A stretch of 64,000 bases of DNA from NCBI GenBank assembly GCA_964427405.1, contig CAYRUB010000008.1, positions 31,428-95,427 on the forward strand, in the 5' to 3' direction. The stretch's first letter is position 1, and each line of letters starts with the position of its first letter. This stretch comes from an uncultured Planctomycetales bacterium. Lineage in GTDB: Bacteria > Omnitrophota > Gorgyraeia > Gygaellales > Profunditerraquicolaceae. Below, piece after piece: positions 3,923-56,028 of this stretch. A model generated the notes under the pieces. It ran no database searches. It was not told where the DNA came from and saw only the letters and a program-made list of their open reading frames with translations. The position numbers were made by a program, and so were the translations under genes.

Positions 3923-4004
3923 TGGGCGGAAGAGGATTTGAACCTCCAAGGGTTACCCCAATAGCTCCTAAGGCTATCGCGTATGCCAATTCCGCCATCC
4001 GCCC
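3923..4004 (-). tRNA. tRNA-Leu (anticodon TAG), long variable arm
   Basis: Revcomp reads GGGCGGATGGCGGAATTGGCATACGCGATAGCCTTAGGAGCTATTGGGGTAACCCTTGGAGGTTCAAATCCTCTTCCGCCCA. Anticodon loop CTTAGGA; acceptor GGGCGGA/TCCGCCC. Confidence 0.8.
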
Positions 4005-4034
4005 GGAATGTTCCTCTTTCCACCTACTAATAAC

Positions 4035-4200
4035 TTTGATAGCCTGTGGTATTGCGGAGCGCGCATTAGAAAACTTTCGGCAAATGAGTGCGAGGAATTA
4101 CGATGAGCGAAGGCCGACGCAGTGTATGGTCGGCCGAAAACGAATCGTAAACCGAAGCACTCGGCGAAAGTTTTCAGCGCGCGGAACAATACCACAGGAT
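4035..4200. repeat. R1 intergenic repeat, copy 1 (diverged), between tRNA-Leu and tRNA-Lys; imperfect ~40-nt terminal inverted repeats
   Basis: Shares aaactttcggcaaatgagtgcgaggaattacg with copy 2 (9220-9255) and cgtaaaccgaagcactcggcgaaa with copy 3 (11770-11800). Ends cctgtggtattgcggagcgcgc / gcgcgcggaacaataccacagg are inverted repeats. Confidence 0.6.
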
Positions 4201-4211
4201 ATCAAATTATT

Positions 4212-4283
4212 CTGAGCCTCCCGCGACTCGAACGCGGCACAACCACATTAAAAGTGTGGTGCTCTACCTGATGAGCTAGAGGC
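4212..4283 (-). tRNA. tRNA-Lys (anticodon TTT)
   Basis: Revcomp reads GGGCCTCTAGCTCATCAGGTAGAGCACCACACTTTTAATGTGGTTGTGCCGCGTTCGAGTCGCGGGAGGCTCA. Anticodon loop CTTTTAA. Confidence 0.75.
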
Positions 4284-4289
4284 CCGAAT

Positions 4290-7185: not shown

Positions 7186-8973
7186 TTATTGTATCTCTTG
7201 AGCATCATAAAGCCGCTTGTATAAACCCTTCTTTTCCAGCAACTGGCTATGCGTCCCCTGCTCAACGATTACTCCTTTATCTAAGACTACAATCCTATCG
7301 GCATTCCTTACCGTGGAAAGCCGGTGAGCGACCACAAAAACCGTTCTGCCGGTAACCAGGCTGTCTAAAGCCTCCTGAACAATACGTTCAGATGTAGAAT
7401 CCAACTGTGAGGTAGCTTCGTCCAGGATTAATATCGGGGCATTCTTTAAAAGTGCGCGGGCAATAGCAATACGCTGACGCTCTCCTCCGGAGATCTTTAC
7501 TCCTCTATCACCAATTATTGTACCATAACCTTGCGGGCATTTGGATATAAAATCATGCGCATGCGCCCTCCTGGCTGCCTCTTCTATTTCCTTATCAGAG
7601 GCATCCAGCTTACCATAAGCAATATTAGCCCGGATCGTATCATTAAAAAGCATGGTTTCCTGATTAACTATACCTATCTGGTTACGCAATGATTTTAAAT
7701 CAAACTCCCGCACATCCACTCCATCAATAAGAACGCTTCCTTTTTGAGGGTCGTAAAAACGCGGAATTAAATCCACCAGCGTGCTTTTTCCCGTGCCGCT
7801 GGGGCCGACAATTGCCAGCATCTGACCGTAACCAACCTCTAAATTAATCCCTTTCAGGATTTGCGTATCGGCATAACTGAACCAAACATCATTAAATCTG
7901 ATATTCTGTTTAAAACCAGTTAAGGTTTTAGGCACAAGCGGTTCTTTTACGCTCGGCTCTGTCTCCAATACTTCATGTATGCGTTCGCTGGCCGCCATAG
8001 CCTGTTGGTTTAAAGCATTTACCTGGCTTAATTTCTTTAATGGTCGGATTAAAGATAAAAGCGAACCCAGAAACAGGCCAAAAACTCCAAAAGATATTTT
8101 ACCGGCGATAACTTCACGGCCGCCCCAGAAAAATACCAACACACCGGCAATACACCCTAAGTACTCCGTAGCAGGATTAAGCAGCAGCGTACGCTTAATT
8201 GACTTCATGGAAAGTTTATAATAATCCATATTTACCTTATTAAACTTACTAATCTCATGCTCTTCCATATTAAAGGCTTTAACAATGCGCGCACCCATAA
8301 TCGTCTCATAAAGCAGAGAATTAGTATCAGCGGCATTCTCCTGAGTGCGTTTGGAAAGTTTTCTTAAAACCTTACCGACCTTTATAATCGGTAAACTGAT
8401 TAAAGGCACGAATATAATCGAAACTAAAGCCATTTTAAAATAGATAAAGAAAATAACTATGGCAAAAATAACCACCTGCAAGCTCTGATAAATCAGGTCA
8501 GTTGAACCGTATGATACCGCATTCTCCACAAGCCTGACGTCATTATTGATACGTGACATGAGTTCTCCGCCGCGCTTATGGGTAAAATAGCTAAGCGATA
8601 AAGACTGTATCTTACCATAGAGTTTAGACTTAATATCCCTGACCACACGTTGACCAATATCCGACATAAGATAGCTCTGGAAGAATTCAAAAATCCCTTT
8701 TAATAAGAAAAGCACCAGTACAGTAACAACCATATAGCTCAAAAGCACTTCCGGAGAGGTATTATTTATTTTATCCACAAAATTAGCCAGAAAATCCGGT
8801 AATTTAGCCGGGATAATGATCTTTTTGTTGGTCAAAACCTTATCTGCTAAAGGCACTATCATTGCCAGAGATACACCGTCAAATATCGCAGAAAACCCCA
8901 TACAAACTATGGCTATAGCGAATAAACCATAATAAGGCCGCACGAATTTTAGTAACTTAAGATAGTCCTTCAT
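7186..8973 (-). CDS. ABC transporter permease/ATP-binding protein, MsbA-like exporter
   Basis: 595 aa. N-terminal 6-TM domain plus Walker A GPSGTGKST, signature LSGGERQR and Walker B ILILDEAT. Confidence 0.8.
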   Translation of the reverse strand: MKDYLKLLKFVRPYYGLFAIAIVCMGFSAIFDGVSLAMIVPLADKVLTNKKIIIPAKLPDFLANFVDKINNTSPEVLLSYMVVTVLVLFLLKGIFEFFQSYLMSDIGQRVVRDIKSKLYGKIQSLSLSYFTHKRGGELMSRINNDVRLVENAVSYGSTDLIYQSLQVVIFAIVIFFIYFKMALVSIIFVPLISLPIIKVGKVLRKLSKRTQENAADTNSLLYETIMGARIVKAFNMEEHEISKFNKVNMDYYKLSMKSIKRTLLLNPATEYLGCIAGVLVFFWGGREVIAGKISFGVFGLFLGSLLSLIRPLKKLSQVNALNQQAMAASERIHEVLETEPSVKEPLVPKTLTGFKQNIRFNDVWFSYADTQILKGINLEVGYGQMLAIVGPSGTGKSTLVDLIPRFYDPQKGSVLIDGVDVREFDLKSLRNQIGIVNQETMLFNDTIRANIAYGKLDASDKEIEEAARRAHAHDFISKCPQGYGTIIGDRGVKISGGERQRIAIARALLKNAPILILDEATSQLDSTSERIVQEALDSLVTGRTVFVVAHRLSTVRNADRIVVLDKGVIVEQGTHSQLLEKKGLYKRLYDAQEIQ

Positions 8974-9059
8974 CTTTTACCTTTCCTAAAGAAGGTTTAT
9001 TTTAACATATCCGCCTAAGCATGGCAAACCTTTTTATTGCATTATTTTGCGTGTCTGGC

Positions 9060-9312
9060 TTGATTTGTCCCTTCCCCTATTACGCTCGGGGTCCTGCCGC
9101 TGAAGATGCCCCTCTTCAGCGTCACCCCTCGGAAGGCAACGCGAAAGAAACCAAACTATACGTTTATGATATTACTAATATAAGATTTCCGGCTTTTGCT
9201 GAAGGCACAATCAGAAGATTTTCGGCAGATGTGTGCGAGGAATTACGTCAAGCGTAGGCAGAATCTTAATAGCGTAAGAATACTGCAGCCGAAGCGAAAG
9301 ACGGAAAGCTTA
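9060..9312. repeat. R1 repeat copy 2 (9181-9312) with an upstream GC-rich hairpin module (9085-9150)
   Basis: taagatttccggcttttgctgaaggcacaatcagaagattttcggca ... gccgaagcgaaagacggaaagctta is nearly identical to copy 3 at 11641-11830. Perfect hairpin GCTGAAGA-tgcccc-TCTTCAGC. Confidence 0.65.
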
Positions 9313-9357
9313 TAAAATCAGTTGCAAACAGGCTTTCAGTCTGCTATGATTTTCAGC

Positions 9358-10275
9358 ATGGATAAACTTAAAGTAGCGGTAATCGGAGCGGGCCATTTAG
9401 GCAGCATTCATGCAAAAATATACAAACAAATCCCATCCTGCACCCTGGTAGGCGTCTGCGATACCAATCCCACAAACCTCAAAGCCGTTTCAGGATCGCT
9501 GCGCTTACCCGGATACAGCAATTATCATGAACTCTTTGGTAAAATTGACGCTGCCAGCATTGCCGTACCTACGCTTCTGCATCATCAGGTAGCGCATGAT
9601 TTTCTTGAGAATAACGTACATCTTCTGGTCGAAAAACCATTTACCGTAGATCTTAAGCAAGCAGACGATCTTATTGAGATTGCCAAAGAAAAAAACCTCA
9701 TCTTGCAAGTAGGCCACATTGAAAGGTTTAACTCCGCTTTTTGCGCCACACAGAAAATAATCAAAAATCCGAAGTTTATCGAATGCCACCGCCTTTCCAG
9801 CTTTCCTAACCGCTCGCTTGATGTCGGAGCTGTTCTGGACATTATGATTCACGACATTGATATTGTTTTAGGGCTGGTGGATTCACCAATAGAACGCATA
9901 GAATCCGTAGGCGTAAATGTACTTACCCAATTCGAAGATATTGCTAATGCCCGCCTGACTTTTAAAAATGGCTGTATCGCCAATCTTACCGCCAGCCGGG
10001 TCTCCGATGAAGTAATGCGCAAAATCCGCATATTCCAGGAAGATACCTATATTTCCCTGGATTATAAAAATGCCGAGGCCTCTGTATACCGCAGGATCCA
10101 GGGCAAGATTACCAAAGAACGCCTGCCTATTGAAAAAGAGCAGCCTTTGCAGAAAGAGCTGGCTTCATTTGTCGATTGCGTAATCAATAAAAAAACCCCG
10201 CTGGTTTCCGGGCCTGTCGCCAGGGAGGCTTTAGCGGTAGCTTTAGAAATTCAAAATCAGATATGGCACAAATAA
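9358..10275 (+). CDS. Gfo/Idh/MocA-family NAD-dependent oxidoreductase; candidate UDP-GlcNAc 3-dehydrogenase (GnnA-like)
   Basis: Rossmann motif MDKLKVAVIGAGHLGSIHA, then the EKP motif and the GHIERFN region. The ORF track begins at 9322 (MQTGF...) but the MDKL start fits the family. The 3' end overlaps the lpxB start by 13 nt. Confidence 0.7.
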   Translation: MDKLKVAVIGAGHLGSIHAKIYKQIPSCTLVGVCDTNPTNLKAVSGSLRLPGYSNYHELFGKIDAASIAVPTLLHHQVAHDFLENNVHLLVEKPFTVDLKQADDLIEIAKEKNLILQVGHIERFNSAFCATQKIIKNPKFIECHRLSSFPNRSLDVGAVLDIMIHDIDIVLGLVDSPIERIESVGVNVLTQFEDIANARLTFKNGCIANLTASRVSDEVMRKIRIFQEDTYISLDYKNAEASVYRRIQGKITKERLPIEKEQPLQKELASFVDCVINKKTPLVSGPVAREALAVALEIQNQIWHK

Positions 10276-11402
10276 AAAAAATATTTATTGTTTGTGGCGA
10301 ACCTTCCGGAGACCTGCTCGCCGGATCTCTTGTCCAGGCAATAACTAAACTTGAACCGGCAATCAAATTCGCAGGAGTAGGCGGGGCATACCTAGAAAAA
10401 GCCGGCGCAGAGATCTTTTGTAATATTAAAGAGTTATCCGTAATGGGTTTTTTTGATGTCTTAAAGAAACTACCAAAATTCCTTAAGCTAAAACAATTAA
10501 TTCTTGAAAAAATAAATACGTATAAGCCCGACGCTATAATTTTCGTTGATTTCTCCGGCTTTAACCTGCGCCTGGCAAAGGCGATCAACAAACACATCCC
10601 AACCATTTACTATGTAAGCCCGCAGGTTTGGGCCTCAAGAGAAGGCAGGGTAAATTGCATAAGAGATTTTATCTCTGAAATGATTGTGCTTTTTAAGTTT
10701 GAAGAAGAGTTTTACAAACAACGCGGAATCAAAGCGCACTGCGTGGGCCATCCTTTAATAAACCTGGTACGCCCGACCTTAGGAAAACAGGAGCTGCTTG
10801 GCAATCTCCAGATTAACTCATCCCAAAAGGTTATTGCTCTTCTTCCCGGTTCTCGTAAACAGGAAATCAGAATGGTCCTGCCATTAATGCTTAAAACTGC
10901 CCAGCTTATCAACAAAGAAATCCCCAATACGCAATTTATCATCGCTAAAGCCCCTAACCTCGATGCACAGATATACCAAAAAGAATGCGGAAAATATACC
11001 CTGAATTTAAAGATTATCGAAGGTAAAACTTACGATTGCCTGAATATCGCCGACTTTTGCCTCGTATGCTCAGGCACGGCAACACTGGAAACAACAATCA
11101 TGCAAAAACCATTTGTGATTGTTTACAAAATGAATTTATTGAATTACTTGCTTTATCGTCCGCAAGTAAAGATTCCTTACATAGGAATGGTCAATATTGT
11201 GGCAGGAAGAAAAATAGTCCCGGAGTACATCCAGTTTAATGCCAAGCCTAAAATGATTGCCCGCGCAGCCCTGGGATTCCTGCAAAGACCTGAACAAACC
11301 AAGCAGATGCTTGAAGATTTGGCTTACGTAAAATCCAGCCTCGGTTCGCCAGGCGCAGCTGAACGCGCCGCCAAACTCATTCTAGACTTCCTCAAGAAAT
11401 AA
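10263..11402 (+). CDS. lpxB: Lipid-A-disaccharide synthase
   Basis: 379 aa; MAQIKKIFIVCGEPSGDLLAGSLV is the LpxB N-terminal signature, and the length fits. Confidence 0.85.
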   Translation: MAQIKKIFIVCGEPSGDLLAGSLVQAITKLEPAIKFAGVGGAYLEKAGAEIFCNIKELSVMGFFDVLKKLPKFLKLKQLILEKINTYKPDAIIFVDFSGFNLRLAKAINKHIPTIYYVSPQVWASREGRVNCIRDFISEMIVLFKFEEEFYKQRGIKAHCVGHPLINLVRPTLGKQELLGNLQINSSQKVIALLPGSRKQEIRMVLPLMLKTAQLINKEIPNTQFIIAKAPNLDAQIYQKECGKYTLNLKIIEGKTYDCLNIADFCLVCSGTATLETTIMQKPFVIVYKMNLLNYLLYRPQVKIPYIGMVNIVAGRKIVPEYIQFNAKPKMIARAALGFLQRPEQTKQMLEDLAYVKSSLGSPGAAERAAKLILDFLKK

Positions 11403-11419
11403 TCAATTAACCCGTCTGC

Positions 11420-11830
11420 CTTGGTTTTATTCTTCACAGGGACGCTTGTTACGGCCCAGCGTGCCGTAACTGCGCTCGGGTCGGCTGACGTCGCTCTCAC
11501 TAGTCTCTGCATAGCCGGTGAACCTTGCCCGCTCCTTGCCTCCACGCCCTGCTCAGAATCAAACCAAGCCATCCGCTAAAGTATATTCAGTAAAAATGAA
11601 CCTGGTAAGTTTCGAGTGAATGTCGATTTTAACCACCCGCTAAGATTTACGGCTTTTGCTAGAGGCACAATTAAAAGATTTTCGGCATCGCTATCGTAAA
11701 TATGTGTGCAAGGTTTTACGGCGAGTGCAGGCAACACCTGATGCGTAAGGCTCCTTGCGCTGCCTGAGCGAGCCGTAAACCGTAGCACACGGCGAAAATC
11801 TTTGTGCCGAAGCAAAAAACGGAAAGCTTA
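11420..11830. repeat. Composite intergenic element: GC-rich structured module (11420-11580) plus R1 repeat copy 3 (11641-11830)
   Basis: About 60% GC in a 40% GC genome. Perfect hairpin GTTACGGC-ccagcgt-GCCGTAAC. Closing helix gccttggtttt...aaaccaagcc. R1 ends taagatttacggcttttgct... / ...gccgaagcaaaaaacggaaagctta. No ORF with coding character. Confidence 0.6.
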
Positions 11831-11875
11831 GCGCACGCGAACAATCTGCCGAAGAGCAAAATATCGCTGTTAGAC

Positions 11876-43133: not shown

Positions 43134-43192
43134 TAAAAAAACCATCTCGCATTAACATGCAAGATGGCGGCCCGACCATCTGAATCCTCCGG
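43134..43192 (-). terminator. Conserved double-hairpin plus U-tract motif (copy 1) after treT and upstream of peptide d
   Basis: Minus strand: AGATGG-tcgggccg-CCATCT hairpin, TGCAT-gtta-ATGCA hairpin, then GATGGTTTTTTT. Core catgcaagatggcggcccgaccatct is identical to the copy at 48171-48236. Confidence 0.4.
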
Positions 43193-43229
43193 AAATGCAC
43201 CCGCAGTTCCGAACCCTTATCCTAATAAA

Positions 43230-48170: not shown

Positions 48171-48236
48171 AAAACAAAAATCGCCACCCTGCATTCCCAT
48201 GCAAGATGGCGGCCCGACCATCTAACGATCCTCTGG
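48171..48236 (-). terminator. Conserved double-hairpin plus U-rich motif (copy 2) between atpC and otsA
   Basis: Same AGATGG-tcgggccg-CCATCT and TGCAT-ggga-ATGCA hairpins, then GGGTGGCGATTTTTGTTTTGTT, about 15 nt before the otsA ATG. Confidence 0.4.
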
Positions 48237-48342
48237 GAATATTTACTTATTCCCAAACCACTTATACTAAATTATATAATGCAATATACCACGATTAGAT
48301 AGAAATTCAACAAATTAATAGAGTAATATTTTATATTTATAC

Positions 48343-55907: not shown

Positions 55908-55958
55908 AATTCCTCCAGATTCTTAAAAAGTTTTCCCTCTTACCCGTTTAAAATAATT

Positions 55959-56028
55959 TAGCGGGTGGCTTGGACTGGATTCGAGCCGCGGTGTGCGGCG
56001 AGAAACAGTCCAAGACAGGACCCGCTAA
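55959..56028 (-). repeat. AGCGGGT…ACCCGCT long-stem element copy 2; plausible glnN terminator
   Basis: Minus strand: tttagcgggtcctgtcttggactg…cagtccaagccacccgctaaa long imperfect stem, then TTATTTT. Begins 3 nt after the glnN TAG. Confidence 0.5.

Follow-up and report, generated by a model that had tools for sequence, protein, structure and literature searches.

A probable lineage-specific family of palindromic intergenic repeats with a conserved, covarying core in Omnitrophota genomes

The enterobacterial repetitive intergenic consensus (ERIC, or IRU), about 127 bp in length, is reportedly an imperfect palindrome with a conserved centre that lies between genes, often directly 3′ of them, and is co-transcribed with them; its long forms are said to result from internal insertions at fixed sites and its short forms from deletion, and its copy number to depend on the lineage. 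The BOX elements of Streptococcus pneumoniae, which are also intergenic, combine conserved and variable modules and have a strong secondary structure. REPINs are extragenic hairpin repeats made of inverted halves, non-autonomous, homogenised within a genome and vertically inherited over long periods (PMC3116915; bioRxiv 10.1101/2021.07.10.451892), and repetitive extragenic palindromic (REP) units measure 20-40 nt and carry a GTAG or CGTC tag (PMC3733652). Miniature inverted-repeat transposable elements, abbreviated as MITEs, are defined by conserved terminal inverted repeats matching those of a parent insertion sequence (IS) and by target-site duplications, and orientation-dependent effects on mRNA have been reported for ERIC (PMC3184786). 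Here we describe R1, a structured repeat present in a 64-kb stretch of contig CAYRUB010000008.1 (assembly GCA_964427405.1), hereafter the window, on which all positions are counted; L-numbers are labels of the related loci fetched for comparison. The Omnitrophota, in whose genomes the element occurs, are uncultured and often ultra-small bacteria known only from metagenome-assembled genomes (MAGs), their non-coding DNA is essentially unannotated, and to our knowledge no genetics exists for this lineage. On balance, we lean towards regarding R1 as a lineage-specific family of non-coding palindromic intergenic repeats, ERIC-, REPIN- or MITE-like in a broad sense; its frequent partner, R2, would be a repeat of the same general kind.

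The window holds three R1 copies, all on the + strand, of which two are intact and one is a deletion derivative. They lie where an initial annotation of this DNA had put them, and a covariance model made from 57 copies of the family, which recovers family members at 74-133 bits, has no match beyond these three on the + strand of the 64 kb; they stand within 8 kb of one another, with none in the remaining 56 kb. Two core patterns occur twice each in the window, against zero expected from shuffles. Copy 1 (4028-4211, +; core 4061-4176; 114.3 bits) is an intact rod with a minimum free energy of -89.6 kcal/mol (z -11.5) and an outer stem of the tRNA-site type, and it occupies the spacer between tRNA-Leu (3923-4004, -) and tRNA-Lys (4213-4285, -), where R1 is also found in L002, L008, L018, L055 and L068. 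Copy 3 (11641-11830, +; core 11665-11804; 105.4 bits; -87.5 kcal/mol, z -6.4), another intact rod, has a type-B outer stem and lies in the spacer of the convergent lpxB and M48-peptidase genes. Copy 2 (9181-9312, +), with a type-B outer stem too, is a decayed derivative in which many pairs are broken (38.3 bits; -44.5 kcal/mol, z -4.3). It is placed between a divergent ABC transporter gene (7186-8973, -) and a Gfo/Idh/MocA gene (ATG at 9358, +), flanked by divergent promoter-like sites at 9027-8999 (-) and 9322-9350 (+). Each copy is thus intergenic, as had been claimed, and the only open reading frames (ORFs) of the window copies are spurious ones that overlap the repeats (9021-9257, 11324-11572 and 11576-11815).

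The relationships drawn initially among the three copies hold in part. The ends of copies 2 and 3 are indeed nearly identical, at 89% over 47 nt on the 5′ side (9181-9227 and 11641-11687) and 92% over 25 nt on the 3′ side (9288-9312 and 11806-11830), and copy 1 is diverged (81% over 53 nt shared with copy 2, 82% over 34 nt shared with copy 3). The supposed insertion of about 60 nt in copy 3 is mostly a deletion in copy 2: when the latter is set against intact type-B copies (L003, L068), some 45 nt are gone, the core having lost its 3′ strand between two GCCG repeats. Copy 3 does carry an insertion, a mini-palindrome of 13 nt at the bulge after TTTCGGCA. In turn, the inverted terminal repeats are real, measuring 30 nt at 83%, but they are only the outermost helix of a whole-element imperfect palindrome.

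Beyond the window, a degenerate core pattern was run over one genome per GTDB species and returned 66 stretches, 65 of them true and from 28 assemblies, and the single false one in a Bacteroidia coding region. The copy number that the initial annotation left to be established therefore comes to 65 further copies spread over 28 MAGs, and a single MAG has as many as 9, the range being 3-9. Among the GTDB representatives R1 occurs only in Omnitrophota MAGs, which are labelled Candidatus Omnitrophota, or are unclassified or named 'Planctomycetales' and carry the same element. The length of the element ranges from 132 to 230 nt (170-230 nt in intact copies). No Rfam family matches R1 or R2, either at the gathering thresholds or at E<=10, these searches returning only the three tRNAs and chance matches; viral contigs, plasmids and phages gave no R1 match (by blastn for plasmids and phages), and in the literature searched no paper ties Omnitrophota to such repeats.

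An intact R1 is predicted to form a single rod-like hairpin of 170-230 nt, at about -90 kcal/mol, with arms of some 90-110 nt. Its core of about 120 nt is nearly invariant and follows the consensus ATTAG-AAAAUUUUCGGC-CAnAU-GnGUGC-RA-GG-nn-UUACGnC-GA-RY-...apex...-RY-GA-GnCGUAA-A-CC-GnA-GCACnC-GGCGAAAAUUUUC, in which a G-G mismatch, tandem GA/AG and a 5-nt bulge are conserved. Folding and covariation had both been put forward initially as ways to check the repeat. Besides the strong fold z-scores, 98.1% of the cells are standard pairs among 74 distinct copies, and 14 of the 27 core pairs have changes on both sides (162 cells), values reached in none of 500 shuffles; structures shifted by 1-3 columns leave just 33-45% of the cells paired. 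Moreover, at loci whose lpxB is only about 62% identical to that of the window the fold is kept through the compensatory changes TTTTGGC/GGCAAAA, GTCTGC/GCAGAC and GTTGGC/GCCAAC, and the internal loops are unchanged. A kink-turn reading of the RA/GNA loop was rejected on inspection, the bulged strand having no G-A dinucleotide after a 3-nt bulge.

Around this core, the outer stems are specific to the site: one is proper to the tRNA spacer, type B to the spacer of the ABC-transporter and oxidoreductase genes, type A to many 3′ ends, and type D is nested in a further palindrome. The apex exists in several interchangeable versions, and the bulge after TTTCGGCA is a hot spot of small palindromic inserts, of 13 nt in copy 3 and larger in L093.

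R1 often has a companion, the structured repeat R2, which is about 175 nt long with a G+C content of 57-65% and stands on the same strand in 24 places, usually 80-190 nt 5′ of the R1 core. Its fold has several stems, its ends are TTAGCGG../..CCGCTAA, one of its hairpins has the conserved loop CCRGCGU, and compensatory changes are seen at 24 of the 32 predicted pairs (23 copies). In the window, a full R2 (11407-11579, +; 133 bits with the R2 covariance model) precedes copy 3. Hence, of the two related GC-rich modules that had been described before copies 2 and 3, the latter is an R2 member; the one before copy 2, a short GC-rich hairpin (TTACGCTCGGGGTCCTGCCGCTGAAGA...TCTTCAGCGTCACCCC; 9080-9132, +), has no match to the R2 model at E<=1, and resembles internally deleted R2 forms by eye only, with similar short forms in L009 and L032. 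A short derivative of R2, reduced to its outer stems and a 5-nt loop, lies at 55947-56026 (-; 55.1 bits, E 1.6e-11), far from any R1 and on the strand opposite to the other R2. Between R2 and copy 3 there is a linker module (AATGAACCTGGTAAGTTTCGAGTGAATGTCGATTTTA; 11595-11634, +) that corresponds to the 5′ arm in 'R4', another palindrome family, which recurs just 5′ of R1 at unrelated loci; the module is also present in L014, L030, L035, L036, L054 and L074, and the whole palindrome in L072.

Smaller palindromes, CCTGCCTnnCGGCAGGCAGG and CCTGCCCTCCGCAGGAGGG, have been inserted inside R2 helices and one R1 internal loop (L072 9250-9270; L067 2540-2560; L065; L068 6430-6450; L093). Such inserts in R1 and R2 indicate what is probably at least one more family of short palindromes, mobile or self-generated. 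Recurrent intergenic hairpins of two further kinds, GGGGACRGTTCTAT...ATAGAACYGTCCCC and GGGACAGTCCC, were noticed as well (L055 1815-1880; L004, upstream of R1; L035, L025 and L010), and could either be ordinary terminators or make up one more family of repeats.

Judged from the related loci compared, R1 copies have been both acquired and lost at the DNA level, where they have also been truncated, inverted, nested and recombined. The polymorphism is seen at the tRNA spacer. Metagenome contigs that are 83-90% identical to the window (about 87%) lack R1 there (L069, L072, L074 and L075), their spacers measuring 30-90 nt against 182 nt in the filled one, and L068 carries the element as the window does. 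At the lpxB-orthologous loci, R1 is present in just 13 of 80, R2 occurs 28 times, in either orientation and in the same two spacers, and the content of the lpxB/M48 spacer varies by lineage, from R1, R2 in either orientation or two R2 to other palindromes or nothing. Decay is seen at the type-B site, where only the 3′ half of the copy is left in L072 and L070 and almost nothing in L075, and in L128, where a small hairpin has replaced the core. Nesting and insertion are exemplified by a type-D rod within type-A arms (L037) and by small palindromes within R1 loops (L068, L093).

Inversion and recombination have also left their traces. L070 and L072 carry the same truncated block, inverted as a whole between two divergent promoter regions, which explains why both R1 orientations are met in that spacer. 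Within the block (L072 6760-7060; L070 1270-1740) are the 3′ half of R1, an 'R4' palindrome and a decayed R2, and at its borders stand inverted TTGCAWnATTTT sequences, which fall on the -35 regions; the layout resembles that of an invertible segment. Copy 3 itself is a recombinant, a type-B rod put into an older type-A copy at this site, because the 3′ arm of a type-A outer stem (GCGCACGCGAACAATCTGCCGAAGAGCAAAATATC) is left over directly after it (11831-11862, +). In L074 and L076, whose orthologous lpxB/M48 site holds an intact type-A R1, this arm comes after that copy, and it is present in L036 as well; the type-B rod of copy 3 still bears the last bases of an R2 (ACCACCCGCTAA). Furthermore, copies at orthologous sites of different MAGs are 75-81% identical and paralogues within a MAG 92-100%, so the copies of a genome have, by this measure, been homogenised through concerted evolution.

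The orientation of the copies is strongly biased. The strand that reads TTTCGGC, taken here as the + strand of R1, runs against both flanking genes in 34 of the 48 informative copies and with both of them in 3 (crude ORF calls). In 55 of 66 loci, among them those of all three window copies, it is the C-rich, lagging strand. The GC skew of the window's + strand is negative in every 4-kb bin (-0.08 to -0.24), so that the whole window would belong to a single replichore, most of its genes being carried by the G-rich strand. No informative locus has gene direction and GC skew in disagreement, and for this reason a bias linked to transcription and one linked to replication are inseparable here. A 13-nt CTATnATAG-like insert is found in 7 of the 11 copies of the minority orientation (G-rich strand) and in 4 of the 55 on the C-rich strand; the pattern was listed for the R1 copies of L010, L016, L020 (-), L028, L057, L062, L064 and L073.

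If R1 is a palindromic intergenic repeat of the broad kind proposed above, it would be a DNA module of 170-230 bp able to fold into one long rod, as single-stranded DNA or as RNA. Its spread and homogenisation would be due to ectopic recombination or gene conversion, possibly together with hairpin-directed insertion by a putative trans-acting enzyme, and the machinery that mobilises or converts the copies would recognise them by their conserved core and its fixed mismatches. What keeps the arms complementary would be selection for the hairpin or, alternatively, repair by template switching inside the palindrome; selection on the hairpin might also be what conserves the core. Most copies lie in short spacers between co-oriented genes or tRNAs, and transcripts of their neighbours would thus include them as a very stable hairpin, which could affect processing, stability or read-through of the transcript. 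The orientation bias, in turn, would reflect selection against the disruptive orientation or an insertion specific to one replication strand.

Several observations weigh against this proposal. No target-site duplication, a feature that the initial annotation had suggested looking for, was found: the flanks of the roughly 40 copies inspected usually extend the palindrome (for example, CATACAC.../...GTGTATATG in L016 and AATAAC.../...TTATT in the window), and no duplicated target distinguishes the filled from the empty tRNA spacer. The TA on the 5′ side of many type-A copies was considered as a target duplication and rejected, as it is part of the palindrome and the 3′ side mostly has A-A or A-T. 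No autonomous element or transposase was found in the 146 fetched loci, a search confined to those loci and not extended to whole genomes; this agrees with the initial report that no transposase is near, and none recurs among the neighbours. For a successful mobile element the observed copies are few, though MAG assemblies undercount repeats, and R1 keeps certain positions across many species (for example, 6 genomes share the one in the tRNA spacer and 3 the one in the topA/xerC spacer). The combination of covarying stems with fixed loops is a pattern typical of a functional RNA or of a specific protein-binding hairpin. Lastly, of 60 copies, 57 fold more stably on the + strand than on its complement, with a mean difference of 10.7 kcal/mol, which is due to the purine-purine nature of the fixed mismatches on that strand; such mismatches number 67 on the + strand against 12, and among isolated mismatches G-U outnumbers A-C by 49 to 15, although these fall into only 18 and 14 distinct contexts. 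The initial suggestion of a non-autonomous miniature element or a structured small RNA is, altogether, partly borne out: R1 is multi-copy, non-coding, intergenic and polymorphic for insertion, with inverted ends, yet no target duplication was found and the part conserved most is the core and not the termini.

A distinctly less probable reading, which still deserves weight, is that R1, or the R2-R1 unit, represents paralogous genes for a structured non-coding RNA made from the + strand, a rod acting as a protein-binding scaffold. Its purine-rich internal loops would then be functional sites and its outer stems closing helices free to vary. This would account for a nearly invariant core whose stems change in a compensatory manner even in the deep members, for the conserved G-G mismatch, tandem GA/AG and bulge, and for the strand asymmetries just described. 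Moreover, R2 always precedes R1, on its 5′ side and on the same strand; the two are inverted together, and at the divergent-promoter site the unit stands between two promoter-like sites and would be covered by neither mRNA. The expression signals point the other way. No sigma-70-like promoter is predicted before any window copy, counts being not above those of shuffles, and no terminator-like site coincides with the window repeats in the scan; at several loci the next start codon is 9-20 nt from R1, which leaves no room there for a separate promoter. The + strand is antisense to both neighbours in most informative copies, and copies are dispensable and decaying in close relatives. Over the full arms, the arm-against-arm count is even (160 G-U, 166 A-C), which is what a lack of strand preference at the RNA level would give, and from mismatch counts no strand can be assigned with confidence. 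For the structured-RNA alternative of the initial annotation, a possible one, neither an Rfam match nor a promoter-like site nor a clear G-U strand signal was found.

Somewhat more doubtful is the possibility that R1 is a domesticated cis-acting hairpin of host transcripts, read in the sense of the genes, that is, as the complement of the + strand, and serving at 3′ ends or between cistrons as a processing site for RNase III or RNase E, as a barrier to exonucleases, or as a weak bidirectional terminator or insulator. R1 typically starts from a few to about 20 nt from a stop codon on one side (about 0-20 nt in around half of the copies), and its + strand is antisense in most; one copy lies inside a tRNA cluster that is contiguous in relatives without R1, the innermost helix, flanked by A4 and U4, resembles the stem of a bidirectional terminator, and effects of ERIC on mRNA that depend on orientation are on record (PMC3184786). 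Nevertheless, a generic hairpin role leaves the fixed loop sequences unexplained, and the conserved loops turn into pyrimidine-pyrimidine mismatches when read in the direction of the genes. With a short U-tract, parted from the G+C clamp by A residues, the helix is not a canonical terminator; at the divergent-promoter site R1 appears to lie outside both transcripts; and close relatives have the same spacers without R1 and with no visible compensation. An intrinsic terminator proper was rejected, since the inner helix is followed by 3-5 A and then by just 4-5 U in either sense. The U-tracts of the two senses differ little, in a comparison of slightly offset windows.

We hold as equally doubtful that R1, perhaps with R2 as a two-domain unit of about 450 nt, belongs to a new class of functional structured nucleic acid confined to a clade of the Omnitrophota. 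In one form of this proposal, it would be a multi-copy rod RNA whose invariant purine-rich loops bind a conserved protein; in the other, a self-propagating hairpin that inserts into, and grows from, the apices of existing hairpins without target duplication, which would be an undescribed mode of transposition or conversion. Both forms share that single low probability. The deeply conserved loops with their covarying stems, the constant order of R2 and R1, the concentric nesting and the palindromic flanks are compatible with this proposal.

It is quite unlikely that R1 is a DNA structure, a cruciform or a single-stranded hairpin, that serves replication, priming or a nucleoid protein in a manner specific to fork orientation, as single-strand origins and primosome sites do. 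The predominance of the + sense on the C-rich strand, the symmetry between G-U and A-C, which fits a constraint not tied to one RNA, and the presence of TAGCGT in some apices would agree with such a role. In ssoA origins this hexamer is called CS-6. However, a lagging-strand template would expose the complement of TAGCGT, and gene orientation and GC skew are fully confounded; both orientations are found in the same spacer of related genomes, the copies are dispensable, and their context is that of chromosomal housekeeping genes without plasmid or rolling-circle genes. An ssoA-type single-strand origin in particular was rejected, with the hexamer in some apices only, a chromosomal housekeeping context and no plasmid match. 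Finally, that the copies are the remnant of a local duplication, a case the initial annotation had foreseen and which their clustering within 8 kb might suggest, can be dismissed, as the 65 further copies in 28 MAGs occupy many unrelated loci.

As for the neighbouring genes, the recurrent families are all of the housekeeping type (frr, pyrH, tsf, rpsB, lpxB, topA, xerC-like and others), and a Pfam scan of 7 proteins next to the window copies returned RRF, ABC transporter, GFO/IDH/MocA, LpxB and M48 peptidase, besides the tRNAs. A glycosyltransferase family, the GT9 heptosyltransferases, adjoins R1 in 5 loci; genes of about 700 aa directly beside R1 (L004 4878-6950, L011 298-2403, L036 94-2109) occur in several MAGs and have motifs that, by eye, suggest a fusion of two halves, each GT9 heptosyltransferase-like. 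The GT9 genes, lpxB and the ABC transporter make up a loose and weak thematic association with lipopolysaccharide genes; the family was considered as the mobilising enzyme and rejected in favour of this thematic link. Next to copy 2, the promoter-like site of the Gfo/Idh/MocA gene (TTGCAA-17-TATGAT, with TG; within 9322-9358) stops 8 nt before the ATG at 9358, an arrangement also kept in L068 and L072. The distance suggests that this mRNA may be leaderless or nearly so. Elsewhere in the window, two nhaA-I riboswitch matches are found about 5 kb apart (43162-43216, -, and 48204-48260, -; 48.9 and 48.7 bits against an Rfam threshold of 37).

R1 is to be regarded as an undescribed family with a set of unusual traits: its structure is deeply conserved, its modules nest concentrically, it has a partner module and its orientation is strongly biased. 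These traits are what leaves some low probability to the new-class proposal above. R1 and R2 explain spurious ORF calls and probably some of the contig breaks in these genomes, and their covariance models can be used for masking or annotating intergenic regions. They also constitute markers of recombination, inversion and concerted evolution, and offer two well-supported structured motifs, with 14 of 27 and 24 of 32 covarying pairs, in which to look for regulatory or RNA-level roles. If the core proved to be the recognition site of a protein or an enzyme, it would give a lead to whatever machinery is responsible for moving or maintaining repeats of this kind.

Among the described systems, the rod-like RNAs of Rfam, such as 6S, share with R1 the rod fold, the conserved internal loops and the covarying helices; R1 has no match to them even at E<=10, is multi-copy, dispensable and decaying, and has no promoter or terminator signal. 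6S RNA itself was rejected as an identity for R1, which is multi-copy, decays and is without the two-sided central bubble. A retron non-coding RNA (msr-msd) was likewise rejected, with no reverse transcriptase among the Pfam-scanned neighbours of the window copies, as was an attC or a repeat related to CRISPR, no integrase or array context having been found. MITEs (Correia/NEMIS, RUP, Nezha) are, like R1, small, non-coding and polymorphic for insertion, with inverted termini, long hairpins and truncated and nested copies. R1 resembles them in its size, in the lack of a transposase gene and in its insertion polymorphism. Every copy has inverted ends, but the sequences of these differ by site (types A-D) and the interior is the conserved part, which also counts against our proposal; no parent IS with R1 ends was found in the 146 fetched loci.

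REPINs and BIMEs are closer in being hairpin-forming inverted halves that persist vertically for long, are homogenised and are non-autonomous. REPs reach tens to hundreds of copies, whereas R1 is several times longer and has a maximum of 9 per MAG; no GTAG or CGTC tag is present at the ends of the R1 arms, and no RAYT gene flanked by R1 is among the recurrent neighbours in the fetched loci, a result without a genome-wide search. BOX elements are modular, structured and intergenic as R1 is; their modules are linear (A-Bn-C) and those of R1 concentric around one dyad axis. By this comparison the closest analogue of R1 is ERIC, and R1 is best taken as an analogue and not as a member. TA flanks and target duplications are reported for ERIC-type elements, and in R1 neither was demonstrable. 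Like ERIC, R1 is an imperfect palindrome folding into a long hairpin, intergenic, conserved across genera, with a conserved centre and with insertion and deletion variants; what sets it apart by description is another phylum, a greater length (170-230 nt), site-specific outer stems, an onion-like nesting and a strong orientation bias.

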